In this document: one piece after another, positions 27,241-63,354 of the stretch
Position numbering within the stretch: position 1 is the stretch's first letter
How the letters are laid out: every line of letters begins with the position of its first letter
Assembly: GCA_965215265.1 (NCBI GenBank)
Contig: OZ244048.1
Span: forward strand, 2,272,001-2,336,000
From: Candidatus Poribacteria bacterium
GTDB lineage: Bacteria > Poribacteria > WGA-4E > WGA-3G
Direction: 5' to 3'
DNA length: 64,000 nt
Made by a program: the position numbers and the translations under genes
The notes under the pieces: generated by a model
Databases searched by the model: none
The model's input: only the letters and a program-made list of their open reading frames with translations
Told to the model about the DNA's origin: nothing

Positions 27241-27250
27241 GGAGGACTTC

Positions 27251-28039: not shown

Positions 28040-28187
28040 ACCTCGTGATGCTTTTTATCCTCGTTGTGAGCCAAGGTGGCTCACTTCGGCTGATGACTCC
28101 TGCCAGCCAATTTACCAAAAGTCAAGGGTAAAAGAATGACAAAAAACAGCACTTTTTTCCCAAAAATCGTCATTTTTTTTGATTAAC

Positions 28188-28441: not shown

Positions 28442-28518
28442 TATTGCGTGCGGCGGGTTACACGTTTTCGGAGATAGGAACAAGTCCGCAATCCCCGAAA
28501 AATAAAGTAGAAAAATCT

Positions 28519-28731: not shown

Positions 28732-28817
28732 TCCTGCGGTTTTACGTGTCCCTGAAAACGTGAAAGGGCAATCCCTGGCAGAGGTCTGCGATTGCCCTTC
28801 AACTTAGGAGAAAAAGA

Positions 28818-29720
28818 ATGAAAAATGTGATGTTTGGCAGTCTCTGCTTGTTAATCTTATGTAAGTTCTCTGTCCATACCTTTAGCGATGCTGAGAACGC
28901 CCCTCGGCTGACGAACGATCGTTCTTCTCAAAAAGGTTCCCGTCCCTCCCCGCCGCCTCTGGAAGCAATGAGTGACGTGCTTTGGGAGGCATCGCTTGTA
29001 ACGTTTCAGGAGCTCCTCAAGACAGACCCGGAATCTGCACGTGCAGAACTCCAGAACGTCAGCAAAAAACTCTTCAACGGGCATCTGCTCACCGAAGAAT
29101 GGGTGCCGCTCTACTTCCGCATCCGCCACAAAGGTACTGAACATCTCTCAGATGTAAAACGCTTGACGGAATTGGAAATCCGGATGCTTACTGCCATTGC
29201 TATGGAAACAGGAGATTTCCAAAAGTATGCCCTCCAGCTGCAGCGCCTCCAAGAAGCCTATCAAAAGTATGAAGACAGGGAAAAAGTGCAGGAAAACAAC
29301 AACCCCGGACATACCCATGGACATAGCCACGGGCTGCCCCCCAAAACCGGAAACGCTTCACGCGGCACGGAGAGCAACGCAGCAGTCGACGAGCGTGATA
29401 TAGAAGCCGTACGCGTAGAATACCTCTCACGCTTTAAAGCAGAGTTCAACGATCACCCGCTCACCGAAAAAATGGTGGATACTACACTCGCACTCGCGGT
29501 AAAGAAAAAGCCAGAGCTGATCGAACTGACAGCGTTACAAATTCAGATTATGAAGGAGGTAGATGCCGAAAAGTATAAGGAAGAAATTCAGAATGCTGAA
29601 GCGGGGTTAAGAAAACTCCAGAATATAAGGGATTTGCTTGAAAAGCAAGGCTCGCTTGAGACTGAGACAGTCAATTTCAAATTTGACATTAACAAACAGT
29701 TGTCAAGATTGAAAAAGTAA
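28818..29720 (+). CDS. Secreted helical hypothetical protein with a duplicated domain
   Basis: SD AGGAG; signal peptide; FNGHLLTEEW..LTELEIRML and FNDHPLTEKM..LTALQIQIM modules; HTHGHSH linker. Confidence 0.75.
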   Translation: MKNVMFGSLCLLILCKFSVHTFSDAENAPRLTNDRSSQKGSRPSPPPLEAMSDVLWEASLVTFQELLKTDPESARAELQNVSKKLFNGHLLTEEWVPLYFRIRHKGTEHLSDVKRLTELEIRMLTAIAMETGDFQKYALQLQRLQEAYQKYEDREKVQENNNPGHTHGHSHGLPPKTGNASRGTESNAAVDERDIEAVRVEYLSRFKAEFNDHPLTEKMVDTTLALAVKKKPELIELTALQIQIMKEVDAEKYKEEIQNAEAGLRKLQNIRDLLEKQGSLETETVNFKFDINKQLSRLKK

Positions 29721-29888
29721 GCAAGGTGCAGGCGAGAAAGGAAGAGGGAGAGAGAAGGTAGATTATCGTTACCTAAAGGTGACGATAACTTCGTTACTCT
29801 CCCTACCTTACCTATAGGTGACGTAGACTACCGGGGATGCCTGCTTGGAAACAGATGCCGATCATTCTTTGTAAAGGAAAGAAATTGT

Positions 29889-30638
29889 ATGAAAGAACAA
29901 ATAGGAGCAGCCATTGGACTCATAGTCTTCATCTGTGTCGGTTTTTGGGTTTACACGCAGTGGGACCTTAAACGTTTTAAAGAATTGCTGCCCACTCCCC
30001 CCGTGCAGACAGAAACGCGCGAGATAGCCCCTGCACAACAAGCACTCACACCACATGTGCCAACGGAAACCACAGCGCCTGCTAAAACCGCATCCCCGAT
30101 GTGCGACACCGAAGTCGAAACCCGAGAGCACATCGCCGCGCAACCCCCTGAAATTGTGCCTGTTGCGGATGGCACCACAGCGGATGTGGCCCTTGACAGT
30201 TTCTTGGACCTATTTTTTGAAGAAACTCAGTCGGATGCAATCACGTCTGGAGACTTCTCGGATGTTTCCCAGGAAGCCCCCTACGACCAAGCCCTGGTGG
30301 AAAAAGGTTTCGAGGATTACAACGCCTCTCTCGCATTCAATCCTGAATACGCCTACCAACGACTTGATGATGCACTCCGCGAGCAATATGGAGACGACTC
30401 TGATGTTGACATCATTGTTGAGACTGTCCGACGCAGCAATGAGGGGCCCATTACAATCGACGATGCGATTCACCACACAGAGGCAATGATAAGACTTGTG
30501 TCGAAAATCTGTCCCCCTGAAGCCGTCGCAGTGATTGCCGACAATCTGGAATACCTCAGAGAATCTAAACAATTGGCACTTGAAGCTGGAGAGGATACCG
30601 TCCACCTTTTTAACTTTCGTTTTCATGTCGGAGAATAA
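29889..30638 (+). CDS. Membrane-anchored hypothetical protein
   Basis: N-terminal TM, Pro/Thr linker, QYGDDSDVD module. Confidence 0.7.
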   Translation: MKEQIGAAIGLIVFICVGFWVYTQWDLKRFKELLPTPPVQTETREIAPAQQALTPHVPTETTAPAKTASPMCDTEVETREHIAAQPPEIVPVADGTTADVALDSFLDLFFEETQSDAITSGDFSDVSQEAPYDQALVEKGFEDYNASLAFNPEYAYQRLDDALREQYGDDSDVDIIVETVRRSNEGPITIDDAIHHTEAMIRLVSKICPPEAVAVIADNLEYLRESKQLALEAGEDTVHLFNFRFHVGE

Positions 30639-30641
30639 ACC

Positions 30642-31034
30642 ATGAAGTCATTCTTTTATAGCGTCTGTATTATCAGTGCTGTCACAGGTTTCGCTTTTTA
30701 TTGAGGAAAAGGACCCGCAGCCCATCCCAAAACATTACTTGCCGAACGGCATCACGTACAGAAAGAACCTGCAGCAACAGGAATAGAATCCGTACACTCC
30801 ACCGAAACCTCACTCCTAGAGGAAGAGAAAAAAGGCTGTGGGTGCTGTCGTTCTGCATTGGAAAAGGTGAGACAGAAACGCAAGGCACTAGAGATGTGGG
30901 CACGGGAGATGATCGACACGCACGGTTATGAAGAAGGCATGCAGCACGTCACAGCCAAATCCCCGACGTTGGCGAAACGGGTACGGTGCCTCCTTGAAAA
31001 AGAGAAAAAGAGCCGAATCCCTAAGCTTTACTGA
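30642..31034 (+). pseudogene. Secreted hypothetical protein (CGCC motif) interrupted by TGA at codon 21
   Basis: MKSFFYSVCIISAVTGFAFY*GKGP...KKGCGCCRSALEKVRQKRK...LY*; TGA at 30702-30704. Confidence 0.6.
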
Positions 31035-32061
31035 TGGAAGGTTTTCTTTCCATTTACATGATTGGCTGTGGTGGTGATAGCGATGATGGTGAGGGAGAAG
31101 TTCAAGATGCAGCGTTCGTCAGTGCAGCACCAGGCAGTAGCGACCTTGCAGCAAATGCGAGTATTACGGTTACCTTTGACAACGATCCGGGTGCTGTAAC
31201 TGCCAGTGCTGGTGACGTTTCAGGTGCAGAGAAAAGCAGGACAATTTCCAGTCCCTTTACCCTTGGGACACTTGCTCTCGTACACTCTTGGGAAAATGGC
31301 GGAAGCCATACGCTTTTTGTATATCTCCGTACCATCAACGCTTAGGTATTGACAGCTCGTGTGTAAATCTCGTCGGAGGCTCCTGATGTATTGACTCCAA
31401 GAATTACAACATCACAGCACCGGATACTGCTCCTTCCACCGTCACGGACGGTTCCGTTAAAGACGGTGATAAGGTCCATCCTGAGGCGATTAACAGTGAC
31501 GCTAAGATCGAGATTACCTTTCGCGAAGATGTAACCGGTTACATCGCCTTGCAGACTGAAGGCGGCGACGATGTCGGCTGGCTTGGCAAGGTTAAAGGCA
31601 ATAAAGCAACGCTGTACCTGGTGAAACGCCAAAAACTGGACTATAACGTTCCCTATATCATTGTTGGCGAAGTTACTGACGCAGCAGGCAACGCAACCGA
31701 GGTTAACACAGTGTTTAGCACCGCTGTTAAAACCGTCGTTCCTATTGAAATCACGGATGCAACTTTTGATAACATTGTGTTGAATTCTGAGTTTCCTATC
31801 GTAGTTGAATTTTGCGGAGTGTGGTGCCCGTTCTGCCGGCAGATGGGGCCAATTGTCCGCGAAGTTGCATCGGAGCACAGAAAGACATTCGCCATTGCAA
31901 AGTTGGATATTGATTCTAACCAGCAAATTACCAGAAAATATCAGGTGCGTGGAGTGCCAGCGTATATTGTGTTCCAAGATGGTGAAATTGTTGGGCGTAT
32001 TGGGGGAGCACTGCCGAAAGTCAGTTTCGTCCGGGAGGTCCTCCGCTTGATTAGCAATTGA
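31034..32061 (+). pseudogene. Ig-like lipoprotein-thioredoxin fusion disrupted by an 86-bp repeat insertion
   Basis: IGCGG lipobox-like; ITVTFD; removing 31315-31400 restores H-T-L-N-Y-N-I-T-A-P-D in frame with DAAGN and the thioredoxin WCPFC..VRGVP domain. Confidence 0.75.
31315..31400 (-). mobile_element. Single arm of the palindromic repeat family inserted into a CDS
   Basis: TTTTGTATATCTCCGTACCATCAACGCTTAGGTATTGACAGCTCGTGTGTAAATCTCGTCGGAGG matches copies at 52187-52245 and 58484-58680. Confidence 0.8.
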
Positions 32062-49023: not shown

Positions 49024-50460
49024 ATGAGCAAAAATACCACCATAACACTCCCGTTAACAATTCGTACCGGACAGACGCATGTGAAAGATGATCTGGTACG
49101 AGAACAAACGGGGCAGCAACAAAATGCTGAAGCGGGTGGACGTAAGGTTTACATAGAAACCTATGGCTGTCAGATGAACGTCAGCGACAGCGAACTGATG
49201 GCGGGTATCCTAAACCAAAGTGGCCACCAGACGGTCTCAACCCTTGATGATGCAGATGTTGTTCTGGTGAATACTTGTGCAATCCGGGAGAACGCTGAAA
49301 CAAAGGTGATAAACCGGTTAAAGCAGTTAAGCCACCGGAAACGCCGGTACCCTGAATTTGTTATCGGTGTATGTGGTTGTATGGCGCAACACCTACGCGA
49401 ACGGCTCGTGGCAGCAGCCCCATACGTCGATCTGGTGATGGGTCCCGATGCGTATAGACATTTGCCTCTGGCATTGAACTCCGTGACAAAGCGCGACCCG
49501 TTTATCAGTCTACAGCTGGACAAAAGAGAGGCTTATAGCGATATCACGCCCATCCGAAAAGAGGGGATTCGTGCCTGGCTTACCATTCAGCGTGGCTGTG
49601 ATAAAATGTGCACTTTCTGCATCGTGCCGTTCGTGCGCGGCAGAGAACGGAGCCTGCCCCTCAAACGCATCGTGGAAGATGTAGAGAAACTCGTTGACCA
49701 AGGGTTTAAGGAAGTTGTGCTATTGGGTCAGACTGTGAATTCCTATCGCGATAGAGGTGCCGACTTTGGCGAGCTGCTCTACGTTGTAGGCAATGTGAAA
49801 GGTGTAGAACGGGTACGGTTCACCTCGCCGCATCCGGCAGATGCTACGGACAGTATGATTGACGCGATGGCGAGTTGTCCTACCGTCTGTAAACACCTGC
49901 ATCTGCCGTTGCAATCCGGTGCAACCACTGTCTTGGAACGGATGCGCCGTACCTACACAGCGGAGGAATATGGAACGCTTGTTGCGCGTTTGCGCGAACG
50001 CATCCCTAATATTGCCCTGACGACAGATATTATAGTCGGCTTCTCTGGTGAAACGGAAGAAGAATTTATGCAGACCTACGAACTCATGGCAGATATTCGC
50101 TACGATTCGGCGTTTATGTTCAAATACTCTGACCGGACGGGTACGCTTGCTCACAAAGCATTCCCAGACGATGTACCCGCAACTGAAAAAGGGAGACGTT
50201 TAACGGCGATAATTGAACTCCAAGAGCAGATCTCTGCTGAAATCAACCGTAGTGCTATCGGAAAATCGTACACCGTGCTTATTGAAGGTGCATCAAAACG
50301 AAACGTTGATAACTACCACGGGAAGACGGACGGCTTCAAAACAACTGTCTTTCCGAAAGAAGACAGCAAAATAGGCGAATTCGTTGATGTTTGCATTGAG
50401 AATGCGACGGCGCATACCTTACTCGGGCGAATCGTTTTTTCGTCTAGTGCAGCCCAATAA
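49024..50460 (+). CDS. miaB: tRNA methylthiotransferase MiaB
   Basis: TYGCQMN, NTCAIRE, GCDKMCTFCIVP, TRAM domain; last residues FSSSAAQ* come from a repeat arm. Confidence 0.96.
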   Translation: MSKNTTITLPLTIRTGQTHVKDDLVREQTGQQQNAEAGGRKVYIETYGCQMNVSDSELMAGILNQSGHQTVSTLDDADVVLVNTCAIRENAETKVINRLKQLSHRKRRYPEFVIGVCGCMAQHLRERLVAAAPYVDLVMGPDAYRHLPLALNSVTKRDPFISLQLDKREAYSDITPIRKEGIRAWLTIQRGCDKMCTFCIVPFVRGRERSLPLKRIVEDVEKLVDQGFKEVVLLGQTVNSYRDRGADFGELLYVVGNVKGVERVRFTSPHPADATDSMIDAMASCPTVCKHLHLPLQSGATTVLERMRRTYTAEEYGTLVARLRERIPNIALTTDIIVGFSGETEEEFMQTYELMADIRYDSAFMFKYSDRTGTLAHKAFPDDVPATEKGRRLTAIIELQEQISAEINRSAIGKSYTVLIEGASKRNVDNYHGKTDGFKTTVFPKEDSKIGEFVDVCIENATAHTLLGRIVFSSSAAQ

Positions 50461-51030
50461 AGGTTTATGCTATGTTAAAGCCCTTACAAATCTCGTCAGA
50501 GCCGTCTGATTTCTACGAATCATAACATCAGAACTTGACGACACCGCTAAAGAGTGCAGGCTCGGAAATAAGTCTGATTTCTACGAATCATAACATCAGA
50601 ACCCTCCGACGAGATTTACACACGAGTACCCACGACATAAGCGTTGATGGTACGGAAATATACAAAAACACAAATCTCGTCAGAGCCGTCTTAGGTTTAG
50701 AATCTAAACATCTTTTCGTCTAGTGCAGTCCAATAAAGGCTTTTTCGGCTACCGGGGCCCAACAATGATTAATGTTTTGATAACCTTAGCATAAATCTCG
50801 CTAGTGGCAGGATAGGTATCTTTCTCTGTCCATGAGAGAAGATTACCTTTTACTCGCCACCCATTGGGAAAACCGAACTTGCCAACCCATTGGGAAAACC
50901 GAACCCCGCCACCTGCCACCCACTGGGAGCCGTTTATGTTTAGATTTTAAAGACATTACCTAGAGCGTCTCCGACGAGATTTACATCGGAGCGTAAAAAC
51001 ATAACCTTTGATGGTACGGAGATATACGAA
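50435..51030. repeat. Composite cluster of palindromic-family arms and REP-like modules
   Basis: Arms at about 50435-50500(-), 50605-50667(+), 50712-50800(-), 50968-51030(+). Confidence 0.85.
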
Positions 51031-51034
51031 AGAT

Positions 51035-51814
51035 ATGCAAAAACTGAGCATCAAGAGTAGACATGAAATTGAGAAGATGCGGCAGAGCGGCAAAGCTGCT
51101 GCCAGTGTACTGCACCAAATTGCGAGAGCAATTCGACCGGGTGTTTCCACTGCAGAATTGGAGTCGGTAGCACAAGAAGCAACTGCTGAAGTCAATGCTG
51201 CCCCATCCTTTCTGGGTTATAAGATAGATGGGCATCCTCCGTATCCTGCCCGGATTTGTGTATCTGTTAACGACGTGGTCATCCACGGCATTCCGAGCAA
51301 AACTGAGAAACTCAGAGAGGGCGATATTATCGGAGTAGACACGGCAGTGAAACGGGGTGGATTCCACGGAGATAATGCCTTCACGTTTCCTGTCGGGGAA
51401 ATTTCTGCGGAGGTACAGAGGTTACTTGATGTCACGAAAAAGTCGCTTTACGCTGCAATTGCGGAAGCCAAGCCGGGGAATCGCATCGGTGATATCGCCT
51501 TCCAATTGCAATCTGTCGCGGAGGATGCAGGGTATTCCGTGATTCAAGCGTTTGCTGGCCACGGCATTGGGCGGCACATGCACGAAAAACCCGAAGTACC
51601 TTGCTTCGGTATACCCGGGATAGGTGAACGTTTGAGAGCGGGCATGGTGCTTGCCGTTGAAGCGATGGTGAATGCCGGCACTTCCGATGTGCAAATAGGG
51701 CAAGATGGGTGGACAATCGTTACTGCAGATGGTAGTCTCTCCGCCTTCTATGAGCATACGGTCGCCGTACTTTCGGACGGTCCCGAAATTCTAACTGGCA
51801 GCCCGATTTGGTGA
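51035..51814 (+). CDS. map: Methionine aminopeptidase type I
   Basis: CVSVNDVVIHGIP, GDII..D, GHGIG..HE.P, EAMVN, EHTV. Confidence 0.96.
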   Translation: MQKLSIKSRHEIEKMRQSGKAAASVLHQIARAIRPGVSTAELESVAQEATAEVNAAPSFLGYKIDGHPPYPARICVSVNDVVIHGIPSKTEKLREGDIIGVDTAVKRGGFHGDNAFTFPVGEISAEVQRLLDVTKKSLYAAIAEAKPGNRIGDIAFQLQSVAEDAGYSVIQAFAGHGIGRHMHEKPEVPCFGIPGIGERLRAGMVLAVEAMVNAGTSDVQIGQDGWTIVTADGSLSAFYEHTVAVLSDGPEILTGSPIW

Positions 51815-51817
51815 TCT

Positions 51818-52245
51818 TTTGTCTTTTTGTCTACTGCAGCCCAACAAAGGCTTTTTTCGTCTACCGGAGCCCAACAATGATTAATGTTTTGATTTTTCGT
51901 CCAGTTCAGCACGTCAACCTGCGATGTTTTGATAACCTTAGCACAAAACTCGCCAGTGGCAGGATAGGTATGGCAGGATAGGTATTCTTTATCTCTCCTT
52001 TCAGGAGAGATAAGATTCCCTTTTACCTGCCACCCACTGGGACAAGAAAACCGAACCCCGCCACCTGCCATCTATAGACCTGCTTAGGTATCGTCTTTAA
52101 AGTCAAAACCTAAGGAATCTCAGACGAGATTTACACGGTAATAAACATAACATCAGGCGTTATCGGGCTTAAATATACAAAAAAACGAGATTTTCACACG
52201 AGCCATCAATACCTAAGCGTTGATGGTCCGGAGATATATAAAAGA
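51818..52245. repeat. Composite repeat cluster with tandem arms
   Basis: Two tandem arms at 52120-52245 with ~61-bp period; ends immediately before the ccmC ATG. Confidence 0.85.
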
Positions 52246-52914
52246 ATGAAAATTATAGCGATTCTGACAACCCTTCTCCTCTTCATCTCACTCTATCTCA
52301 TCTTCGCGTATGCGCCGGTCGAACGGACGATGCTGGAAGTACAGAAGATTTTCTACTTCCACGTATCCGCGGCCCTCACCGTTTTCCTTGCGTTTGGCGT
52401 GAATTTTGTGCTGAGCATCAAGTACCTCATTAAACGTAAAATAACCGATGATCTGTTAGCCAGCGCGGCGGCTGAACTCGGCTTGTTATTCTGCACAATT
52501 GCGTTACTCTCAGGTCCGATTTGGGCCCGGTATGCCTGGAACACTTGGTGGAATTGGGAACCGAGGCTGACCAGCACGCTCATTCTCTGGCTGATGTACG
52601 TCGGATATTTTATCCTACGAACCGGCTTATCGGGAGACAAACGGAGGCTATATTCTGCTGTGCTCGGTGTGATTGCCTACCTTGACGTGCCTATCGTCTA
52701 TTATGCTGTCGATATATGGCACGGTGGATTACATCCAGACCGCGGCACAAAATGGAACCTGGAACAGGCGATGCAATGGACGTGGATGATGTCTCTCGCG
52801 GCGTTCATCATGCTCTTCTGCTTCTTGCTTATTCTACGGTATCAGAGTAAAAAGAATGAAGCACGTTATGATATTCTTAGACAACATTACTTAGAGGGGG
52901 AGGGAGCGGTCTGA
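52246..52914 (+). CDS. ccmC: Cytochrome c biogenesis heme exporter CcmC
   Basis: IFYFHV, GPIWARYAWNTWWNWEPRLT, LHP. Confidence 0.92.
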   Translation: MKIIAILTTLLLFISLYLIFAYAPVERTMLEVQKIFYFHVSAALTVFLAFGVNFVLSIKYLIKRKITDDLLASAAAELGLLFCTIALLSGPIWARYAWNTWWNWEPRLTSTLILWLMYVGYFILRTGLSGDKRRLYSAVLGVIAYLDVPIVYYAVDIWHGGLHPDRGTKWNLEQAMQWTWMMSLAAFIMLFCFLLILRYQSKKNEARYDILRQHYLEGEGAV

Positions 52915-52924
52915 ACGGTGCATC

Positions 52925-53050
52925 GCTTTTTCGTATACTGCAGCACCTAGAAACCCTCCGACGAGATTTGTACAAGGCTTATCAAAACATCGCAGGTTGA
53001 CGTGCTGAAATATACAAAAAGTTAACGTGCTGAAATATACAAAAATAGGT
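52925..53050. repeat. Repeat arm(s) between ccmC and the ccmD-like gene
   Basis: CTCCGACGAGATTT-N41-TATACAAAAA at 52957-53020, then a duplicated GTGCTGAAATATACAAAAA. Confidence 0.8.
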
Positions 53051-53059
53051 ATTTTATCT

Positions 53060-53413
53060 ATGCGAATTCTCATCTTAGCTAGTTTTTTGATTAGTTTTAG
53101 TCTCTTCTTAACAACCCAAATTCCGGTAACCTTAACAGCAGATGAAATCTCACAGTCCGTGTCCGATGCAATTGCAGAAACACAAGTTAATGTGGATGAA
53201 GATGAAGTGGAACGGGCAGTGCAACTGTCGGTTACCAAACTGGAACAAGCACAACGCAAGCGCTTGAAATACCTTGCCGGTGCCTACTTCGTGATATGGT
53301 TGGTATTTATGCTCTATGTGTTGAAGTTGGCACAGCAGCATAACACCTTGGACAAACGTTTGGCGCAATTAGAACAAGGGTTAGCGTGGGACGAAAAAGC
53401 AGACACGCTATAG
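53060..53413 (+). CDS. ccmD: CcmD-family protein with N-terminal extension
   Basis: YLAGAYFVIWLVFMLYV TM followed by coiled coil; downstream of ccmC. Confidence 0.65.
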   Translation: MRILILASFLISFSLFLTTQIPVTLTADEISQSVSDAIAETQVNVDEDEVERAVQLSVTKLEQAQRKRLKYLAGAYFVIWLVFMLYVLKLAQQHNTLDKRLAQLEQGLAWDEKADTL

Positions 53414-53456
53414 GGTGTCGATCTTCCGTAAAGTACAAGCGGTGATGCGATTGCAT

Positions 53457-53927
53457 ATGAAAACCTCTCGGTTCAGAACGCAACAGACAATTCAGAAACC
53501 GATTGAAACTGTGTTTGCGTTCTTCTCTGATGCACATAATCTATCCGTACTGACACCTCCGTGGCTGCGGTTCGAAGTACTCACGCCGGCCCCGATAGAG
53601 ATGAAAGTTGGTACTCGGATTAATTATAGACTGAAACTACACGGTATCCGGATACGCTGGCAGAGCGAGATAACGGTATGGGAGCCCCCGGGTGTTTTCG
53701 CTGATGAACAACGTCGCGGTCCCTATCGTCTCTGGCGGCATACGCACACTTTTGCCGAAACATCAGACGGGACCGTCGTAGCGGATGATGTCGAATATGC
53801 CGTGTGGGGACATTCCTTTGTTAATGCGTTGTTCGTGCAGCGGGATATAGAGAAAATCTTCGAGTACCGCACGAAGCAGCTAGAGCGAATCTTCCAAGAA
53901 CCGCGTAACCCTGCAAACGTCATCTAA
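53457..53927 (+). CDS. SRPBCC-family protein
   Basis: VFAFFSDAHNL..LTPPW, WQSEIT, DEQRRGPY..WRHTH, IFEYR. Confidence 0.88.
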   Translation: MKTSRFRTQQTIQKPIETVFAFFSDAHNLSVLTPPWLRFEVLTPAPIEMKVGTRINYRLKLHGIRIRWQSEITVWEPPGVFADEQRRGPYRLWRHTHTFAETSDGTVVADDVEYAVWGHSFVNALFVQRDIEKIFEYRTKQLERIFQEPRNPANVI

Positions 53928-54606
53928 TGTGCTGCAGTAGACGAAAAAACGGCATTTCCCGATAAAAACGTAATCGTTCATAGTAGTATATGACGCGTTC
54001 GACGTAGGCAATCGTCTCATGGAAGCCGTCGAAATAGCCGTGCGGTGGTTTAGCTTGCGCTTTCCACACGTTTTGATGGAGCAGGACATCTTTCTTAGTC
54101 AATCGCGGTAGCGTAGCTCTGACAATAGCCCATGTGTGCGGATCTGCACCTTGGTGGCGGACAAGCGTTTGTGCGTCGCGAAGATGCCCAATCCCGCCGT
54201 TGTAGCTGGCTAAGGCAAGTTTGAGTCTATCTTCGTGTGGGCTGTTCGGAAAAGCATCATACAACGTCCGTAGATATCGGGTTGCACCTTCAACATTCTG
54301 TTCGGCATCAAATGGGTTGCGGACACCGAGTTCTTCGGCCGTCGTTGGCATGAGCTGGGTTAACCCTTGCGCCCCAATTGAACTGATAGCGTGTTCGTTA
54401 AAGCCGGATTCTTGAATGATAAGTGCACAGAGCAGCCGCCAATCTAATTGCTGCCTCGTGGCATATTTCTGGAGAAGTGGACGGTAGTGGAGAATTTTGG
54501 GCATCAGTGCAAGCAACCGAATATCTTGTGGACTCTCAATCAATAGATAGGACAGCACAATTAATATGAGGGTTGCGAGAATCAAAATTAGTGTGCGTTT
54601 GTGCAT
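53920..54606 (-). CDS. Lytic transglycosylase (SLT/MltF-like)
   Basis: QESGF, GAQGLTQLMPTTA, ALASYNGG, ETIAYV. Confidence 0.9.
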   Translation of the reverse strand: MHKRTLILILATLILIVLSYLLIESPQDIRLLALMPKILHYRPLLQKYATRQQLDWRLLCALIIQESGFNEHAISSIGAQGLTQLMPTTAEELGVRNPFDAEQNVEGATRYLRTLYDAFPNSPHEDRLKLALASYNGGIGHLRDAQTLVRHQGADPHTWAIVRATLPRLTKKDVLLHQNVWKAQAKPPHGYFDGFHETIAYVERVIYYYERLRFYREMPFFRLLQHIR

Positions 54607-54633
54607 TTTGTGTTTTTGTCTATTTCCGTACCA

Positions 54634-56301
54634 TCAACGCTTATGTCGTGGGTACTCGTGTGTAAATCTCATTTTTTTATACAAAAAGCTGATGTAAAGT
54701 GCGAGATGGTACTCGGTGTGTGTTTTGTCTAGGTGATGTCCCCGGTTTCGGATAGTCTGCCATGCATAGCGGAGGCTGGCATTCCACGATGCCAAGGGAC
54801 GATAAGAGATGGTCCCGCCGATTCGGGTGATATATTCGACAACGCCAGTGGGGAATGGGAGAGCTTTGAAGTCTTCGCCATAAAACCGGTCTGCTACGGT
54901 GGCTTCGCCGTTTCGGGTTAGGTTGGCTGTGAGGGCGGTCTTAGTATCTGGTGTCCATTGGTAAGAGAGAGAGAGGTTGAAAGTGTCGGCATCTGTTCCG
55001 ATGGGATGTCCGATGATGTGTCCGAAGTGCGTGAATTGATTTTCCGGGACAAGGTGTGTATAAGCCCATCGATTGACGCGGGCGTATTCTGTGTGAATGC
55101 CGAGTTGTCGTCGGAGTTTGTCGGGGTACCACGTCACGCCACAGAGCCATGCGACAGCGTGCGGGTCGTTTGCCCCGGGTACGTATTGTAAATCGTCAAT
55201 GAGCCACTCGGCATAGAGGCGCAAGCCGTCAACGGGACGGACAGCGACATCCAAAGCGAACATGACATTATCGTCGGCCTTGGCATTATATTGCAACGCA
55301 TAGTAAAAGGTGACGGGATTTGCATATTTGAAATCGAGTGTTTGTGCATCGCCGCCGTAGAGTACCCATTCACTGAGCCCGATGTTAAGCCGGTCGAAGT
55401 GTTGGTACTCAAGCCGATGTGCACTCAGATAGCGTTTGGCGAGGTAACGGGTATTACCGTCATCGTACCAGGTAGCATCGAGTTGTGTAGTGAAGGCGGT
55501 GGCTTTGAACCTGCCGAATGTGCCGGTGAGACGTAGCATGTCAAACGGTGGGGAATTATCGGAAATTCCGACGGAATATTGTGGTGTCGCGCCCCAAAAA
55601 ATTGCATCTCTGCCTACCAATAGTCTGAGTCGCTCATTGTATGTAGCCAGCTGCAAATAGCCGCTTTTGACGTTTCCGGTATATCCGCCCCGCCAGGGTT
55701 CCAAACGTTGTTCGGCGGTTTTGCCTTTAGCAAGCGTGGTAACATCTTGCCGGTGAAAATCTTCAAAATTTTGGAATTCACACTCGGTGTAAATTGTTAG
55801 GTTTCGGTATTGAAAGTGAAAAGCGCCCTCAAGTGCTGGGGCGATTTTTTCTTGCGTGGCACGTAGTTGAGGGAGCACGGCGAGTTCGACGTTTTCACTG
55901 CCAAACATCGGAACCCTCCGACGAGATGTACACAGTGATTCACAATGTGTCAGGGGGTGTAGGGCTCCAGTATCCGAAAATCGGTGTGCGAGTTCTGTGT
56001 GAAACTCGCGTTTTAACTTTTCAAGGAGCTTCCTATCGATCTCGGAAAGTGAGCCGGTGTGTGCACGACTCCGTTTCTCAGCATGTTGGATGATGCGTAC
56101 AATCTCTGTGCGTGAGTATGGGGCGGTGTGTCGATGGAACCCTCCTGTGATGCCATCAGTTTCCAATTTTGCGAGTGCTTCACCGACCCAACCATCAAAG
56201 TTAAGCGGTGGATGGGGGGCAGCGTGCAGAGCGGTGAGATAGCAGAGGAGGATCACGGTGGCTGTGCCAAAGATATCTAGCGCTTGTCGTTTTTTTTGCA
56301 C
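54634..56301 (-). CDS. Capsule assembly Wzi-family outer-membrane protein
   Basis: PYSR, VGRD..WG, ISDNSPPFD, SAHRLE, YAEWLIDD, GHPIG; GTG start with GGAGG SD; C-terminus RFTHEYPRHKR* is repeat-derived. Confidence 0.8.
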   Translation of the reverse strand: MQKKRQALDIFGTATVILLCYLTALHAAPHPPLNFDGWVGEALAKLETDGITGGFHRHTAPYSRTEIVRIIQHAEKRSRAHTGSLSEIDRKLLEKLKREFHTELAHRFSDTGALHPLTHCESLCTSRRRVPMFGSENVELAVLPQLRATQEKIAPALEGAFHFQYRNLTIYTECEFQNFEDFHRQDVTTLAKGKTAEQRLEPWRGGYTGNVKSGYLQLATYNERLRLLVGRDAIFWGATPQYSVGISDNSPPFDMLRLTGTFGRFKATAFTTQLDATWYDDGNTRYLAKRYLSAHRLEYQHFDRLNIGLSEWVLYGGDAQTLDFKYANPVTFYYALQYNAKADDNVMFALDVAVRPVDGLRLYAEWLIDDLQYVPGANDPHAVAWLCGVTWYPDKLRRQLGIHTEYARVNRWAYTHLVPENQFTHFGHIIGHPIGTDADTFNLSLSYQWTPDTKTALTANLTRNGEATVADRFYGEDFKALPFPTGVVEYITRIGGTISYRPLASWNASLRYAWQTIRNRGHHLDKTHTEYHLALYISFLYKKMRFTHEYPRHKR

Positions 56302-58391
56302 GTGTGTGCCTCCAATTTTTTGACGGTTTGATCTATTTTTCGGAATTGCCATGTCCAGCGTGTGTTGTAAAGGAATTGCCGCAAATCGAAGCGGTTATCG
56401 TCGGGGGAATAGGCTTCTGCATGATAAGCCGGGGTTAGTGTTGTCATTTTGTGTCGATTCATCGCATAATATTTGAAGAAGTGTTTGACCTTTGCGGCAA
56501 CTTCCTGGGGTGGGAGGTGGTGCCACTCGTCTCTTAATTTTTCAAACATGCTGACGGGACCGCATCGCTGCATTTTTCGGAGTTGTCCGAACCGGCTGAG
56601 TTCAGCATAAGTCATGCCCATATCTTCTTCATCGTTTTGTGTGTATGTTTGAGTTATCGGTTCAAGTTCTGCAGTTGGGGTGGCTTTAACAATGTCGGAT
56701 AGAGCGGTATAACCAAAGCGTTGCTGTGCCCAACTGAGAAATCGGCGCAGGTCTCGCTTACTAATACCGCCAATGGGGTTGATATCGCCACTGCTACAAT
56801 CGTACTTTGTGAGGTAACCGCGGAGAGCCTCATCGACGTTGCCGGTGCCCAGGACGAGGAGCGTGCCTGGGCGTTTTCGTATCCAGGGCATCATTTGCGC
56901 GAGTAGATAACTGATGACCATTCGTAAGCGCGCTTGTATGTTTTGAAGTGCAAGGTTCTCGGTGAAAGAGCCTCCCTCCACTTTGAAACGCGGTTTTTTG
57001 TTTGTAATGTGCGTGAAGAGTGCCTCTAATGCGCTTACGAGGGGGTCCATGTTGATGTCCAAGTGCTTCGCGCCGAGCTGTTCAGCGAGCTGTTTTGCAC
57101 GTTTCTGTGTCTCGCGCGAACTATTTTGTGTGCCGATGTAACAAGTATAGAGCAGACGCTGGGCAAGGACGCTCGGGTTTTCGAATATCACAAAAGTCTC
57201 GTCGCCAACAAGCCATCTTTTGACATCATCTCTGGTAGTGGTATTTCCGTCCCGAATGGCTTGTGAGACGAGATGGCACATAGAACCGACAAGTGTTGCG
57301 ACAGCACCGCTGTCAGCTCCCCCAGAGAGCGGTATAAAATATCCTTCGGCACCGGAACGGCGGAGGTAATCCCAGAGCCAGCAAGCAGGACCGAGGGCGA
57401 TCTCTTCCTCAGGGGTATGGGCGGTCGGTTGCTGATGCGGTGTTGTTGAAAGCGTGCTGACTTCGTGTGATGCAAATTCAAAGTCGGCGATGTTAATTTG
57501 TGGGAGTGGTGCTGTTTGGCTTGCTTGTAGGGTGCGACTCGCTTTCGCTGCACGGTAGGAACGGACATCGTTAAGGTTGACGGTAGCGGTGATAACTTCC
57601 ACCTCGTTGAGTGAGAATTGTGATGCTTGCGCGAGGAGTTCACCGTTTTGTGCGATTAACGCGGAGCCATCAAAATAGAGCCGTCCGCCATCACATCCTT
57701 GTTGATTGGCGTATAGATACACACCGCCATTTTTTGCAGTTGCGTTCCGGATGAGGGCGATGCGGGTATCGAGTTTACGCAGCTCATGATGTGAGCCGGA
57801 GCCGTTACCGATAATTTCGACACCGGCGTTCCCTAAGTGAGTATGCGGACTTATGGGTGCAAACAATTCCTCGCAGGATTCTGATGCCAAAAGCGTGTCG
57901 CTGAGGGCAATAGTGGCGAGTCCGATAGGCACTGTGTGTTGCCCGGTGAGGCGTGCGATGTCGTCCGGAAGAGTGAACGGTTGGGTGGTCCATCCGTGTT
58001 GCCACGCAGCAAACCAGCGCGGTTCGCGGTAATTTCCGTCTCCGGCAAGCACGAGTTTCGGACGGATGAGCCGAAGTTTGCCGTTTAGGACGAAGACGCG
58101 ACAGTTGTATCGGACATTTTTGTGTAGGATGGGCATCCCGATGTCACAGAGGATGTCTGCAGTGTATCCGCCTTTGAGGATTTCGGCGAGTGCCTCCCAG
58201 CTGTGGATGAGTGTATCATGTTCGAGAAAATGGTCCTCGCAGGAGTAGCCTGTGATTTCAAGTTCAGGTCCCAACCGATATCGCGCACCGCGCGCTTTCG
58301 CGATTTTTATGGAGTCAATGATACGTGCTGTGTTGCCTTCAAAGTCGAGACTCCATTGATTGAGATTACAGGTTGCAAGTGTCACTTTCAT
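56277..58391 (-). CDS. nadE: Glutamine-dependent NAD+ synthetase, eukaryote-type (Qns1/NADSYN1-like)
   Basis: TLATCNLNQWSLDFEGN, GPELEITGY, SGGADS, YLTKYDCSSGDINPIG, HKMTTLTPAYHAEAYSPDDNRFDLR. Confidence 0.93.
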   Translation of the reverse strand: MKVTLATCNLNQWSLDFEGNTARIIDSIKIAKARGARYRLGPELEITGYSCEDHFLEHDTLIHSWEALAEILKGGYTADILCDIGMPILHKNVRYNCRVFVLNGKLRLIRPKLVLAGDGNYREPRWFAAWQHGWTTQPFTLPDDIARLTGQHTVPIGLATIALSDTLLASESCEELFAPISPHTHLGNAGVEIIGNGSGSHHELRKLDTRIALIRNATAKNGGVYLYANQQGCDGGRLYFDGSALIAQNGELLAQASQFSLNEVEVITATVNLNDVRSYRAAKASRTLQASQTAPLPQINIADFEFASHEVSTLSTTPHQQPTAHTPEEEIALGPACWLWDYLRRSGAEGYFIPLSGGADSGAVATLVGSMCHLVSQAIRDGNTTTRDDVKRWLVGDETFVIFENPSVLAQRLLYTCYIGTQNSSRETQKRAKQLAEQLGAKHLDINMDPLVSALEALFTHITNKKPRFKVEGGSFTENLALQNIQARLRMVISYLLAQMMPWIRKRPGTLLVLGTGNVDEALRGYLTKYDCSSGDINPIGGISKRDLRRFLSWAQQRFGYTALSDIVKATPTAELEPITQTYTQNDEEDMGMTYAELSRFGQLRKMQRCGPVSMFEKLRDEWHHLPPQEVAAKVKHFFKYYAMNRHKMTTLTPAYHAEAYSPDDNRFDLRQFLYNTRWTWQFRKIDQTVKKLEAHTCKKNDKR

Positions 58392-58955
58392 TTTTTTTGT
58401 ATCTCTCCGTTAAGAATTGTCCCTGCCAGCGGGGCGAATTCTTCCATCAACGCTTAGGTATTGATGACTCGTGTGTAGATATTGTTTTTCGTATCTCTCC
58501 GTACCGTCAACGCTTAGGTATTGATGGCTCGTGTGTAGATATTGTCGGAGGTGCCTTAGGTTTAGTCTTTTAAATCAGAACATATTTGTATATTTCAGCC
58601 CGATACCGCTCTATGTTATGATTTTTCGTATCTCTCCGTACCATCAACGCTTAGGTATTGATGGCTCGTGTGTAGATCTCGTTTTTTTGTATCTCTCCGT
58701 ACCATCAAGGATTATGTATTGTTAATGCCTATGTACATCTCGTCTGAGATTCCTTAGGTTTTGACTTTAAAGACGATACCTAGAGCGGCTCAGGCGAGAT
58801 TTATAAGGGTTTTAACATTGCATCCGCCTTGATTGCGCTCTTGTAGACAAAAAAACGAGATTTGTGCTTAGGTTATCAAAACATAGATTGTTGACGTACT
58901 GAACTGGACGAAAAATCAAAATATAGACCTTTGTTGTGGTGCATTGGACGAAAAT
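58392..58955. repeat. Largest cluster of the palindromic family, including a complete element (58682-58855)
   Basis: Left arm 58682-58748, centre ATTCCTTAGGTTTTGACTTTAAAGACGATACCTAGAGCGG, right arm 58789-58855; further arms on both sides. Confidence 0.9.
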
Positions 58956-60262
58956 TAGGTTTTTTGTTTTTTTTTGCGTGCTGCGGGAAACAAGATGTTG
59001 TTCAAAATGAGGCGATAGCCGGGCGAATGTTTGTGCAAATCGAGGTTCGTGGGGATTTTGCCTTCTCCGACTAAGTGGCGATAGTCCTCCGGGTCGTGTC
59101 CGCCGAGGAAAGTAAAGGTGCCTTTGCCTAATTTTCCGTGTATATATTTTGCGTAGTTGGTGCCTTCAATCTGCCCTAAAATGGTGACGGAACCCCGGAG
59201 CAAATCCATATTAAAAGATGTGGTCTGCCCAAGGAAACCGGGTACCACATTCACATGATTTTGCGTGAGCATAGTAGGTATTGGATGGTGTTTTGCGGCA
59301 AATTCAAAAAGTGCGAAGTCTTCAACCCCGCTCTGTGCATCTCTATCAGGCTCAGGATTGTCTATATCTGAGAATTCGTATCGGTATGGATTTGTGTAGA
59401 GCGTAAAATTCTCAAAAGCCAAGGTGCGCTGTGCTTTGAAATTCTGTGCGAGCCGTGTTTGGAAATCGCCATCAATCGGTGTTCCATCAAGTTCAGGTGC
59501 GACGATGTCAATCATTCCGCCGCGTGTTGCTAATGCAATATCCAAGGTTTCCGGTGCGGAGCACATTGCGAAAACAAAGCCGCCGTTAGCGATGTAGTCC
59601 GCTATCATCAATGCGGTTTGTCCTTTGTATTTCGGGACACTTGAAAAGCCAGCCTCTGCAGCGGCTTTTTCAAAGAGGTGCATCCGTTGCTGATACCAGA
59701 CCTGCCTAGAAAAGGAGGCATGAAACTTTCCGTGCTGTCCAGTGAAGTCTTCGTGGTGCAGATGCAACCAGTCGTAACCTTGCGTCTGTAGTACGCCGCT
59801 CTGTACTTCTTTGTCCCAGAGTTCGTCGTAGGGGATCTGTGCGTAATCGAGTGCGAGCTTAACTGCGTCGTCCCACGGGTCACGGTATGGCGACTTCTCT
59901 GCAGGGGCGTATACTGCGATTTTGGGTGCTTTCTCTAAGCGGATCTCGTCCATATTATTGGCCTGTAGGACGGTTTCTTGGATACGGTTGTAGTCCGCGA
60001 TGCTCATCGGCTCAAAAAGGACACCCATGAAGGCTGCACGGGTTCGTACATCTTGGGAGTCCGGCAGCACGAAGGCACCGCCTCGGTAGTTCAACCACCA
60101 ATAGCATCTATATTCGCGTGGTGGGGCTAACGCCCAGTATGTCAAGCCGTAGGCTTTGAGATGATTGGTTTGCCCGTTTTGTTCCATTGGGACTAAAAGC
60201 CACTGTGCAACGGCTGGGACGCTGCAAATGGAAAGATAGAGGACGATGATGAGTTTTTTCAT
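58955..60262 (-). CDS. Conserved secreted hypothetical protein (Bacteroidetes-type family often labelled 'asparagine synthetase B')
   Basis: LLVPME..NHLKAYG, LNYRGG, PWDDAV, DWLHLHHEDFTGQ, FAMCSA, GHDPEDY, SPGYRLILNNILFPAA. Confidence 0.8.
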   Translation of the reverse strand: MKKLIIVLYLSICSVPAVAQWLLVPMEQNGQTNHLKAYGLTYWALAPPREYRCYWWLNYRGGAFVLPDSQDVRTRAAFMGVLFEPMSIADYNRIQETVLQANNMDEIRLEKAPKIAVYAPAEKSPYRDPWDDAVKLALDYAQIPYDELWDKEVQSGVLQTQGYDWLHLHHEDFTGQHGKFHASFSRQVWYQQRMHLFEKAAAEAGFSSVPKYKGQTALMIADYIANGGFVFAMCSAPETLDIALATRGGMIDIVAPELDGTPIDGDFQTRLAQNFKAQRTLAFENFTLYTNPYRYEFSDIDNPEPDRDAQSGVEDFALFEFAAKHHPIPTMLTQNHVNVVPGFLGQTTSFNMDLLRGSVTILGQIEGTNYAKYIHGKLGKGTFTFLGGHDPEDYRHLVGEGKIPTNLDLHKHSPGYRLILNNILFPAARKKKQKT

Positions 60263-60502
60263 TTTTTTGTATATCTCCGTACCGTAAAGGTTTAGGTTGT
60301 GGTTAATCCAATGTTGGCAGGTAAGGTATGGCAGGGTTCGGTTTTCTTGCCATGAGACAAAGAATACCTTATCCCTGCCCCCTATAGGTTCTTGTCTCTC
60401 CTGCAAGGAGAGTGGCGAGATTTGTACAGGATTTTTCATAGCAATCGCCTTTGTTGTCCTGCAGTAGACGAAAAACTTTATTGTCCTGCAGTAGACGAAA
60501 TT
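60263..60502. repeat. Repeat cluster (arm and REP-like modules)
   Basis: GGCGAGATTT-N41-TAGACGAAAA at about 60414-60476; duplicated TTGTCCTGCAGTAGACGAAA supplies the upstream gene's stop. Confidence 0.8.
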
Positions 60503-63354
60503 GCCGGTGCCTGCCCGAATACAATCTGTCCGTTGTGCATTAATGGGGTTTCACTGGTGCCGGGGTTCTGGATATCCACGGACCAGAGTTGTCCGTTGTT
60601 TTCATAAAGTATCCAACGGCCGGCAGGCGGCATCCACACTGGATGTCTGCCGCCGTACTGGGTTAACTGCTGTTCGGTTCGGATGCCTGTGTCTGAATAC
60701 ATAACAAGCCAAATCTGTGATGGTTCTTCTTCAACCGTTCGCGTGAAGGCGAGTTGATTCGGATTTGCCGGAGACCAGGCAGGTTCTGCATCCTGGGCAG
60801 GGGAGATAACAATCGGTTCGATACGCTTTGTCAAACTGTCGAAGGCGTAGATATTCCGTTTTGCAGTGGTATCTGGGTTTTCAATTGTGCCTTCTGTGAC
60901 ATAGGCCAGTAGGCTACCGTCGCGGTTCCATGCAGGGTTGAAACTTTGCAGTGCGGTTGAAGGCACGGTGAAGGTTTGATTGCTGGGAAGGTGTTGAATC
61001 ACAATCAACCGTCGGTTGGTTGGCCCGGTTTGTGTATAGGCGACATAGTTTGCATCCGGTGAGATAGCGGCATCACGTGCAAGATGGCGTGCGTCCAGTA
61101 GTATGCGGCCGTCGGGTGAAACAGAGTCGTGAAGGATGAGATTGCCGTCGATATCTTCATAGAGCAGCGTCCCATCAGCAGCGACAGTTGGATTGGTGCC
61201 GGCGGCGATAGCAGTGATGCCTGTGTCAGCAGTGAGACTCCATAGGACACCGTCATAACCGAAATAGGTAAAGATGCCGTCTGTTCTTAAGAAATCCTCC
61301 GGTGTGCTGTTTAGCGGAGCGTTGCCGCCATCAATGGTGTGCAAATCCGGTGGTTTTTCGATTTGTGCGGTTTCGGCTTTTTGTATACTAGAGCCCCACA
61401 ACGCCCTAGGTTGTGTCAATGACTGTGAAAATCTCGCCTGAGATTTTCTAGGTTTTGCATCCGAAAGGGCTGCTGCGGAGGGCTGAAACTGCTCGGCATC
61501 AATAAATTCCCATCCGGCACCTGTCGTCCGCCATCGAAACCCGAGTCCTTTTGTCCAATACTTCCATTCTTCGTTCCGCTGTCCATTGCGGTTAATAGTG
61601 AAAACATCCTCGGGTTCTCCGTATCGCCGTCGAATTTCCCAGCGTCCGCCATCCATAATTTCTGTCAGTGTGCCGGCTTCATCAATATAGGTTGCGAACA
61701 TTTCTATATCAATATGCGAAGTGGTGTGCCCGGGTAAGACAGTGACAGCAATAGGCTCACCGCGCACCGGGAAACGTGTGCCATAAAGTCCTACGTTGTC
61801 TGTGAGCCCTGTGGTACCGTCGTTATTCTGGTCAAGTACTGCCATGGCGTAGTAACGTCCAGGCAGCACGTGTATGTGGTAACGCCCGTGCTCGCTGAGT
61901 GTAATAGGGATGGGGAGGGGTGATTGGAAGTCAGGCGTGTAAGAGAGACTGATAATTCCTTGCGTGCGTGCTACGGGTTTCCCATCGGCGAGGAGTCTTC
62001 CGGAGATGCTGCCGTGTTCAATGTGTGTTTCAATGCCGGGTGGTGCGGGGCGGAGTTGGCCATCAGCATCATAGCGTGCAGTGATAAGGATATCAACCGT
62101 GCGATCGTCCGTGCTTTTGGATTCAGTCAGAACAAACGGGGTTGGCGGGTGCATGCTCATATCTAAGGTCCCATATCCGCCGACACCATCACCTTCGCTG
62201 TATCTGCCATTTTTATCGGCATCGAGATTGGCGATGAAGTAATACTCGCCGGGTGGTAAGGCAAGCTGGAACGTTCCGCTCGGATGCGTCTCTGCACTTG
62301 CGAGGGGTGTGACTAAAGTCGGTTGAGCGTAAACTTCAACGCGTGCTGTGATATCAGTGCTGTCGGTAGGCATCGGAGATACTGTACCGGTAAGTGCAAC
62401 CCGTGTCTGGTTTTGTCTATTTGTATCTGATGGATACGTGTGAGTGATGGCGATGTCCACATTTTGGGTGAACCGGTTCTCTGCAATGAGGATAGGCTGC
62501 GGTTTGTTATGTGCGTTTTTCAAAAAGGGTTTTCTTGCCGTGCTAGTTGAAGTCCTACCGTTGCGGCTGTGAGGTGTATCAATGCCGTAGAAACCGAACG
62601 CATCGCCAGCATCGAGCTTATTGGTGTGGTTGTTGTCGATAATAGCCATCAGGTAATATTTTCCGGGTGGTAAGTTAAGGGTCCATTCGCCGGAGTCTGA
62701 GACGCGCGTCATAGCGGCACGGTATTTCCACGTAATATCCGTATATGCAAGAACGAGGGCTTGTGCACCGTCATGGACGCGTCTCTGAACGCGGAGATGC
62801 CCGTGGCAGCCACTAGTAACTTTACGCAGTTCACTCTGAAACTGTTGAAATTCGCTATTTTGGTATTCGGAAATCGAGACAATTTTAAGTTCACCGTTGA
62901 CCTCACCGGCACGTGCAGTAATAGGTATCTCTAATCCACCGATGCGTTCTCCGTCGCGTATTTCGAGGAGTTGCTGCTTTTGGGCGGTAGAAACCCAATT
63001 AGTAATTCCGTAGATACCGAGCCCATCTCCGGTATCAAAATGTCCTGACCGGTCGACATCAACGTACGCAACGAGATAGTAGCGGCCTGGAGCAACACGG
63101 AGTAGGAATTTACCGGCTTCTTGTTGTGGAATACCACTGACGTAAAGTTCCGTTAGCGCCTCATCCCGATAGACGGAGACGTTTGTGTTTGAGAGATCTT
63201 GCCCTTCCCAGATTACTGTTCCTTCAAGTGTTGCTGTCATCTGTTTTCCTACCTGGGTGTCTATCAAGGGTTTCGGCGAAGCTTCTTGTGATAGTGCAGC
63301 ACGCATATAGGAGCTAAGGGACATCATTAACAGAACCAGCAGCAATCGTTTCAT
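60478..63354 (-). CDS. Large secreted multidomain protein: four Dx[DN]xxG beta-sandwich modules + TolB/PD40 propeller
   Basis: Signal peptide; PGxYYxxAxxDxxxxG four times; AISPD, PAWNRDG, PAWSP, PVW. Confidence 0.8.
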   Translation of the reverse strand: MKRLLLVLLMMSLSSYMRAALSQEASPKPLIDTQVGKQMTATLEGTVIWEGQDLSNTNVSVYRDEALTELYVSGIPQQEAGKFLLRVAPGRYYLVAYVDVDRSGHFDTGDGLGIYGITNWVSTAQKQQLLEIRDGERIGGLEIPITARAGEVNGELKIVSISEYQNSEFQQFQSELRKVTSGCHGHLRVQRRVHDGAQALVLAYTDITWKYRAAMTRVSDSGEWTLNLPPGKYYLMAIIDNNHTNKLDAGDAFGFYGIDTPHSRNGRTSTSTARKPFLKNAHNKPQPILIAENRFTQNVDIAITHTYPSDTNRQNQTRVALTGTVSPMPTDSTDITARVEVYAQPTLVTPLASAETHPSGTFQLALPPGEYYFIANLDADKNGRYSEGDGVGGYGTLDMSMHPPTPFVLTESKSTDDRTVDILITARYDADGQLRPAPPGIETHIEHGSISGRLLADGKPVARTQGIISLSYTPDFQSPLPIPITLSEHGRYHIHVLPGRYYAMAVLDQNNDGTTGLTDNVGLYGTRFPVRGEPIAVTVLPGHTTSHIDIEMFATYIDEAGTLTEIMDGGRWEIRRRYGEPEDVFTINRNGQRNEEWKYWTKGLGFRWRTTGAGWEFIDAEQFQPSAAALSDAKPRKSQARFSQSLTQPRALWGSSIQKAETAQIEKPPDLHTIDGGNAPLNSTPEDFLRTDGIFTYFGYDGVLWSLTADTGITAIAAGTNPTVAADGTLLYEDIDGNLILHDSVSPDGRILLDARHLARDAAISPDANYVAYTQTGPTNRRLIVIQHLPSNQTFTVPSTALQSFNPAWNRDGSLLAYVTEGTIENPDTTAKRNIYAFDSLTKRIEPIVISPAQDAEPAWSPANPNQLAFTRTVEEEPSQIWLVMYSDTGIRTEQQLTQYGGRHPVWMPPAGRWILYENNGQLWSVDIQNPGTSETPLMHNGQIVFGQAPAISSTAGQ

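Follow-up and report, generated by a model that had tools for sequence, protein, structure and literature searches.

A 64,000-nucleotide stretch of a Candidatus Poribacteria chromosome (contig OZ244048.1, positions 2,272,001 to 2,336,000; hereafter the window) carries a family of palindromic repeats whose arms combine a fixed length with a highly variable sequence. Homologues with named sources agree with this assignment to Candidatus Poribacteria. The family is real, and its arms, to judge from comparison with homologous proteins, are inserted DNA that forms the two sides of a predicted bulge-free, in-register hairpin. Pairing on one strand, in which G-T pairs are tolerated, is the likely explanation for a length that is fixed while the sequence varies, because most differences between arms are G-T-pairable on the strand antisense to the neighbouring genes. 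There is roughly an even chance that the repeats are non-autonomous hairpin elements, akin to MITEs (transposable elements of the miniature inverted-repeat type) or to REPINs, which an enzyme acting in trans moves in folded, single-stranded form and whose orientation is filtered by selection.

Arm pattern and map of the elements

An exact search for the pattern CGAGATTT-N(38-44)-TAKACRAAAA returned eight matches in the window and none in 100 shuffles of it, with a gap of 41 nt in all eight. Seven of these matches coincide with arms listed in the initial annotation, which had aligned nine arms with a 41-nt core by eye, and the eighth (31314-31372) lies outside the interval considered there. A weight matrix built from 13 seeds gave 22 matches scoring above 8, of which 18 scored above 25 (13 of these strong arms being training seeds), while the top score in 20 shuffles was 9.9; it recovered two arms with end variants that the exact pattern had missed (52186 and 58856, both plus). 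The nine-arm family is borne out by these counts, as is an additional copy with a 40-nt core, originally located near 50968 and now placed at 50975 by the weight matrix and the alignment. A gapless alignment spans 59 columns for 18 arms, with a median core identity between copies of 49% (range 29-100%), and the fixed bases noted earlier (C14, A15, C19, T28, G33, C36) correspond to columns 22, 23, 27, 36, 41 and 44. Homology extends 25 nt further inward, yielding an 84-column alignment of 11 arms with one 1-nt gap, and the inner box includes the small palindrome CTC-N4-GAG. Outward-facing arms around TTTAAA and tandem stacking, with a period of 60-61 nt, are both present as first described. Truncated units of 25-40 nt are common in the weight-matrix results, and units of 25-61 nt have the outer A-run in common and differ at their inner ends. 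Some arms lie within open reading frames (ORFs), and arm ends are concentrated at gene junctions, occurring at 7 of 9 junctions between 50 and 61.5 kb and at 0 of 40 elsewhere in the window.

Core length falls into discrete classes rather than varying freely. Among 11 inner boxes in the window, the core measures 41 nt in nine and 40 nt in one, the end being absent in the last; under permissive scoring, 31 of 136 arm pairs are gapped in their best global alignment, which is a caveat on the fixed length. In a second Poribacteria chromosome, OY282383.1, 39 inner boxes comprise 16 with a 43-nt core, eight with a 47-nt core, one with a longer spacing and 14 without an end in range, so that the 41-nt length is lineage-specific. 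These lengths also bear on the alternative offered in the initial annotation, namely a protein-bound array with strict geometry, taken here to mean a host protein and a helical arrangement. Scattered invariant bases at fixed spacing and the CTC-N4-GAG palindrome would suit such an array. However, the core lengths (41, 43 and 47 nt) are separated by steps that are not helical, column conservation shows no period of 10-11 nt (helical phasing of the fixed bases was rejected on the same ground), and the arms occur as lineage-specific insertions in coding regions, which together make a binding array very improbable.

Several other identities were considered and set aside. A protein-repeat origin was suggested by one protein-like frame, yet none of three arm sets has significant codon periodicity, in agreement with the initial reading (p 0.13 for the whole arm, p 0.26 for the core), and cores differ by 2 nt between genomes; in addition, a profile of the translated arms yielded ten protein matches, nine of them arm translations and one due to chance. 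These matches include an insert within a TlyA-family protein and short ORFs that read the left arm, an 11-codon centre and the right arm straight through. Inspection also excluded a CRISPR-like array, as the cores are related subfamilies, and a diversity-generating retroelement, as the variable columns are not restricted to A. Rfam 15 at gathering score gave no match in the window.

In a full unit of about 165-175 nt, a variable centre separates a stop-facing arm from a start-facing arm, with about 84 nt per arm. The elements of the window are as follows (coordinates, strand, description).

58684 to 58853, plus: complete element with a 52-nt centre containing TTTAAA between a start-facing arm (58684-58742, minus) and a stop-facing arm (58795-58853, plus); predicted to form a single rod on the plus strand, which is the antisense strand of the flanking genes
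58583 to 58954, plus: symmetric stack with units of 61, 61 and 40 nt on either side of the centre; predicted 372-nt rod whose right end adjoins the stop of ORF 58955-60262
58394 to 58569, minus: additional start-facing arms and an end fragment with GGAGA, directly before the nadE ATG (58391)
50437 to 50668, minus: element after miaB; stop-facing arm 50437-50495 provides the final codons and stop of miaB, followed by a centre with an internal duplication and a second arm (50610-50668, plus)
50672 to 51032, minus: element before map; inner-box fragment, stop-facing units of 29 and 59 nt (50713-50800), a second hairpin module (50800-50925) and a start-facing arm (core of 40 nt), with 2 nt between its end and the map ATG (51035)
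51824 to 52244, minus: element between map and ccmC; stop-facing units of 30, 40 and 59 nt, second hairpin module, TTTAAA centre and two start-facing arms, with 1 nt left before the ccmC ATG (52246)
52927 to 53045, minus: short element between ccmC and the ccmD-family gene, truncated at its left end; has a single arm (52962-53020, plus) together with an end unit of 25 nt
53918 to 53947, plus: half arm providing the final codons and stop of a lytic transglycosylase gene
54613 to 54687, minus: arm that precedes the transglycosylase ATG and is linked with a short palindrome equal to two fused outer boxes; lengthens the C-terminus of the Wzi-family protein by about 14 residues
55897 to 55980, plus: single in-frame arm (28 residues, antisense) in the Wzi-family gene 54634-56352
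60264 to 60501, plus: element separating ORF 60478-63354 from ORF 58955-60262; contains a partial start-facing arm that lies 1 nt before the ATG, the second hairpin module, a stop-facing arm, and a unit of 27 nt providing the upstream stop
61378 to 61461, minus: single in-frame arm (about 26 residues, sense) in the variable linker of a 958-aa protein
31314 to 31401, minus: isolated arm between frames 31034-31315 and 31402-32061, outside the interval of the initial annotation

The isolated arm may represent a frameshifting insertion of about 86 nt that split one gene; frame 31402-32061 beside it encodes a thioredoxin domain, no intact homologue was seen, and an ESM Atlas search with the 31.4-kb piece provided a weak lead and nothing more. 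The second hairpin module occupies the centre of three elements (50800-50925, 51955-52075 and 60320-60415), folds well alone (RNA z -1.9 to -6.2) and partly resembles the 47-nt core and a palindrome module of OY282383.1. Furthermore, the arms flanking ccmC (51894-51952 and 52962-53020) pair at 37 of 41 core positions, exceeding the pairing with their adjacent partners, and some arms are left/right mosaics, which points to conversion between copies.

Predicted hairpin fold and strand-biased G-T pairing

A hairpin within each arm was rejected, as single arms have neither a fold of their own (mean z -0.3 to -1.0) nor a consensus structure. It is the pairing of one arm with the other that gives a strong predicted fold. 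The complete element 58684-58853 reaches -61.9 kcal/mol (z -7.1) as plus-strand RNA, compared with -43 kcal/mol (z -3.1) for the minus strand, and z -4.0 as DNA, while the stack 58583-58954 is predicted to fold as one rod with z -13.6 on the plus strand and -5.4 on the minus strand (12 shuffles each), a symmetry found at this one site only. Arms are equal in length and pair without bulges, the copy at 50975 alone having a 1-nt offset. A consensus rod of 45 pairs is common to five elements with differing centres; its foot is TTTTYGT/ACRAAAA, and the 7-bp terminal box is followed by a mismatched stretch in which column 52 is mismatched in 5 of 5 pairs. Partner arms, which are only about 50-65% identical to each other, agree at 27-38 of 59 positions plus the outer box. 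The better-folding strand is the antisense one in 58684-58853, 50437-50668 and 52927-53020.

The differences between partner arms follow the same polarity. Among transitions between partners, 46 are G-T-pairable on the strand antisense to the neighbouring genes and 11 on the reverse strand, with an excess in each of the five pairs; a label permutation across 15 intergenic arms gave p 0.00025 for the G-T direction. At 50-53 kb the bias favours the minus strand and at 58-60 kb the plus strand, tracking gene direction. Replication skew as the sole cause was rejected: because fourfold sites of the host genes are G+T-rich on the plus strand in both blocks, the G-T direction at 50-53 kb opposes the host skew, which may nevertheless contribute at 58-60 kb. 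The initial proposal that constraint acts at the nucleic-acid level is therefore supported, and its most likely form is arm-to-arm pairing on one strand, a feature that the proposal had not contained. The G-T bias also predicts which strand is the substrate, so that the mobiliser can be sought directly.

Two side observations concern the skew of the surrounding genes. The GC skew at fourfold sites is unusually strong, at -0.33 to -0.54 on the sense strand, in four minus-strand genes (54634-63354) that coincide with the densest repeat cluster. Plus-strand genes at 21158-30638 show a skew opposite to the one found in most of the window's other plus-strand genes, which suggests that this block has been inverted or relocated.

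The stronger fold as RNA raises the question of retroposition, in which a reverse transcriptase acting in trans would copy an antisense RNA rod and the copy would enter A-rich sites, with outer ends left intact and A-ended and inner ends truncated. The 25-61-nt units that keep the outer A-run and vary at the inner end are consistent with this, as are the left junctions in OY282383.1, which are often A-rich. However, the A-runs are short, no duplication signal was detected, the same box at both arm ends is unexplained by a one-directional copy, and no reverse transcriptase was seen in the window or in six further Poribacteria loci, which leaves retroposition an improbable account.

Insertion, gene-end position and candidate mechanisms

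Homologous proteins indicate that arms have been inserted. The Wzi-family segment containing the arm 55897-55980 has 53 residues, compared with 25 in 62 of 120 proteins and no other above 42; the arm at 61378 equals a 26-residue gap relative to the closest homologue, although this linker varies in any case. In OY282383.1, the corresponding SucD segment has 52 residues against 30 in 97 of 120 homologues, equivalent to a 22-residue insert, and TrpE, a TlyA-family gene and one unnamed ORF likewise contain in-frame arms. Several different inserts of 7-34 residues occupy this SucD loop in 23 of 120 homologues, making it a likely hot spot of repeat insertion. No target duplication above control was found around single arms: flanking direct repeats in 20 of them showed no excess (p 0.43), a test that a 2-bp duplication would escape.

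The elements are also polar relative to genes. The ATG codons of map, ccmC, the transglycosylase gene, nadE and ORF 58955-60262 each follow an outer end after 1-6 nt, mostly with GGAGA or GGAAA close upstream, and ccmD follows one after 14 nt. Arms likewise reach the ends of miaB, map, ccmC, the transglycosylase gene, the Wzi-family gene and two unnamed ORFs, overlapping or abutting them, and provide the stop in several cases. Column 52 is T in 12 of 14 ends that run along transcription versus 4 of 16 that run against it (p 0.0013), a count in which one end was entered a base off and scored as against the rule. The adjacency of ccmC and ccmD is preserved across an element.

In the preferred reading, arm length would be fixed since both arms must stay in register, and bases would drift where G-T pairs or symmetric mismatches are tolerated. 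An enzyme encoded elsewhere would cut the element and rejoin it in the form of a folded single strand, leaving no target duplication. An HUH Y1 transposase of the TnpA-REP/IS200 kind would be the most likely mobiliser, because such enzymes act on single-strand hairpins, as described in the excerpted account of PMC6006769, and no duplication signal was found. Selection after insertion would then filter orientation, given that one arm brings a GGAGA ribosome-binding-like site, the other a possible stop, and the mRNA strand the weaker hairpin.

By analogy, the Poribacteria element appears to work most like REPINs. As far as the excerpted descriptions go (PMC3337134, PMC3116915, PMC6006769), it resembles REPINs and BIMEs mobilised by RAYT in its inverted halves, single-strand hairpin, tandem or nested clusters, variable internal sequence in discrete length classes and short palindromic remnants, and, under the proposed reading, in an enzyme acting in trans, which is a REPIN feature. 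It forms the inverted doublet expected of repetitive extragenic palindrome (REP) pairs, a long hairpin with a variable spacer. Unlike REPs as described there, however, the arms are about 84 nt long and A/T-ended, and lack a short GC-rich palindrome with a GTAG/GTGG foot; no RAYT was seen. Because the REP foot is absent, the element is not filed as a REPIN. A scan of the window for GTAG-footed hairpins, from which GTGG was left out, found three weak sites, none of them in arms, and the GTAG-type REPs of OY282383.1 are separate inserts within arms.

Several points weigh against the preferred reading. A mutation bias acting on one strand could yield the same G-T pattern even if structure were not under selection. 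The strand rule holds less strongly in OY282383.1 (p 0.028 in one subfamily, p 0.45 in the other), where three bounded elements comprise one that agrees (5:1), one that is even (3:3) and one that is contrary, and where most arms are single and do not fold with a partner. The predicted fold of the complete element is stronger as RNA than as DNA, and in the large-centre elements 50713-51032 and 51824-52244 energy favours the antisense strand while the z-score favours the sense strand. The covariation check suggested by the initial annotation gave a divided answer: there are seven compensated pairs versus 3.1 in shuffled data, a comparison in which the structure was fitted to the same five sequences, and an unbiased test of partner-specific covariation over all core columns was not significant (p 0.11); moreover, the five partner pairs are not independent, owing to common ancestry. 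The GTAG foot carried by canonical REP substrates is absent from the arms. Finally, no transposase, recombinase or reverse transcriptase family was found among 51 ORFs of the window, in line with the initial statement that it has no cognate transposase, no mobiliser family emerged in 20 window ranges rescanned with NCBIfam, and none was present among 89 ORFs of the six Poribacteria loci, the window and loci together covering 184 kb. A linked RAYT gene flanked by the repeat was likewise not found within these 184 kb, nor was an insertion sequence with matching ends in the window or the six loci.

A classical MITE is a rather unlikely alternative, in which long, diverged terminal inverted repeats would be moved as double-stranded DNA by a DDE transposase encoded elsewhere, with the fixed bases as transposase contacts and the G-T bias derived from one master copy or from mutation bias. 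The window and the three bounded OY282383.1 elements do have inverted ends around variable content, the terminal inverted repeats enclose a non-coding core, a strong predicted stem-loop is a listed MITE trait, and modular stacking occurs as in BOX. The initial description as MITE/BOX-like holds for the inverted arms, the stacking and the insertions missing from orthologues; no target duplication was found around single arms and no transposase in the window or the six loci, and insertion of lone arms is unexpected of a two-ended cut-and-paste unit. According to the excerpted accounts (PMC3184786, PMC3049150), bacterial MITEs and BOX share with the Poribacteria element a non-coding nature, inverted ends, a stable predicted stem-loop, modular stacking and gene-end fusion, and differ in that here no target duplication is detected, arms are diverged and single arms move. 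BOX, whose described modules comprise A and C ends with tandem internal B, is set apart by this description, as the stacked units here are copies of the terminal arm.

In-frame insertion and 5' or 3' gene extension are likewise reported in the available parts of PMC3184786 and PMC3110155 for RPE of Rickettsia, BRE of Betaproteobacteria and REP2 of Neisseria. BRE also forms tandem copies, with units of about 75-90 nt (PMC3110155, in part), and REP2 places a ribosome-binding site before a start (PMC3184786, in part). Unlike these families as there described (PMC3184786, PMC3110155), the Poribacteria element is a polar rod with two arms, one type facing gene starts and the opposite type gene stops.

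The stop-to-start position also recalls attC sites. It is improbable that the rods are structure-specific single-strand recombination sites of an undescribed attC-like system with another terminal box and with strand choice made by G-T pairs rather than extrahelical bases; a tyrosine recombinase would then act on the folded antisense strand, and excision and reinsertion of the genes between sites would take along their own ribosome-binding site and stop. The better-folding strand is antisense to genes, as in attC bottom strands; the rod has a 7-bp terminal box, a mismatched stretch and the column 52 mismatch in 5 of 5 pairs; and arm ends fall at 7 of 9 junctions in the cluster, against 0 of 40 elsewhere. 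The excerpted attC description (PMC5027507) adds low sequence conservation with a conserved fold as a shared trait. The element differs from that description in several ways: the terminal boxes are TTTTYGT and ACRAAAA instead of RYYYAAC/GTTRRRY, with no AAC triplet and no extrahelical bases, and the length exceeds 141 nt. Arms lie within genes too, no integron integrase family was found in the window and no integrase or cassette array was seen, the elements lying among housekeeping genes whose operon neighbours remain together (ccmC-ccmD, scpA-scpB, xseA-dxs-tlyA). If the rods were such sites, they would bracket chromosomal genes with a portable ribosome-binding site and stop, and Poribacteria could reshuffle housekeeping genes as cassettes.

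As far as the searches extended, the Poribacteria family is undescribed, its general kind being known and the polar G-T rod unusual: no earlier description was found in the open-access literature. A query with 58682-58914 found no match in phage and plasmid collections.

Distribution, significance and other window features

A genome scan with the pattern returned at least 12 loci; among the matches listed, five come from chromosome OY282383.1, one from another Poribacteria genome and six from other taxa. The model trained on the window gave 65 matches, 30 of them in the five OY282383.1 loci at E up to 0.01 (best 3.6e-10). The locus of the other Poribacteria genome (L011) has a 39-nt gap, was missed by this model and is unconfirmed. 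The six loci from other taxa look like chance, two having weak model matches (L012, E 0.003; L005, E 0.06). The L012 match (10001-10069) is a chance one in a coding region that reads SDEIY, as the inner box does in one frame; this peptide may resemble an aminotransferase motif.

In OY282383.1, arms form mosaics with GTAG-type REPs and another palindrome, and one bounded element has near-perfect 42-nt ends. Gene order in two of its loci (L009, 467-9648; L004, 4458-6987) may hint at rearrangement linked to repeats: pgk is separate from gap-tpi-secG, and sucD, panB and hisI have unrelated genes as neighbours, with arms bracketing each. L004 also has a leucine-rich-repeat gene between two near-identical Uma2 endonuclease-family genes (15653-19709).

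Housekeeping proteins (MiaB, Map, SucD, TrpE and the TlyA family) have their translation starts, C-termini and internal loops rewritten by the family. Its hosts belong to a major phylum of sponge symbionts, in whose genomes the repeats will mislead start-codon calls and create false short ORFs.

Two further features of the window deserve mention. Duplicated genes with 36-nt tandem repeats (MgtE_N-like matches) and common upstream and terminator-like segments lie at 8230-11280, and a repeated promoter-like segment with TTGACA-like and TATAAT boxes (5945-5988, 26664-26746, 28179-28261) precedes unrelated ORFs.

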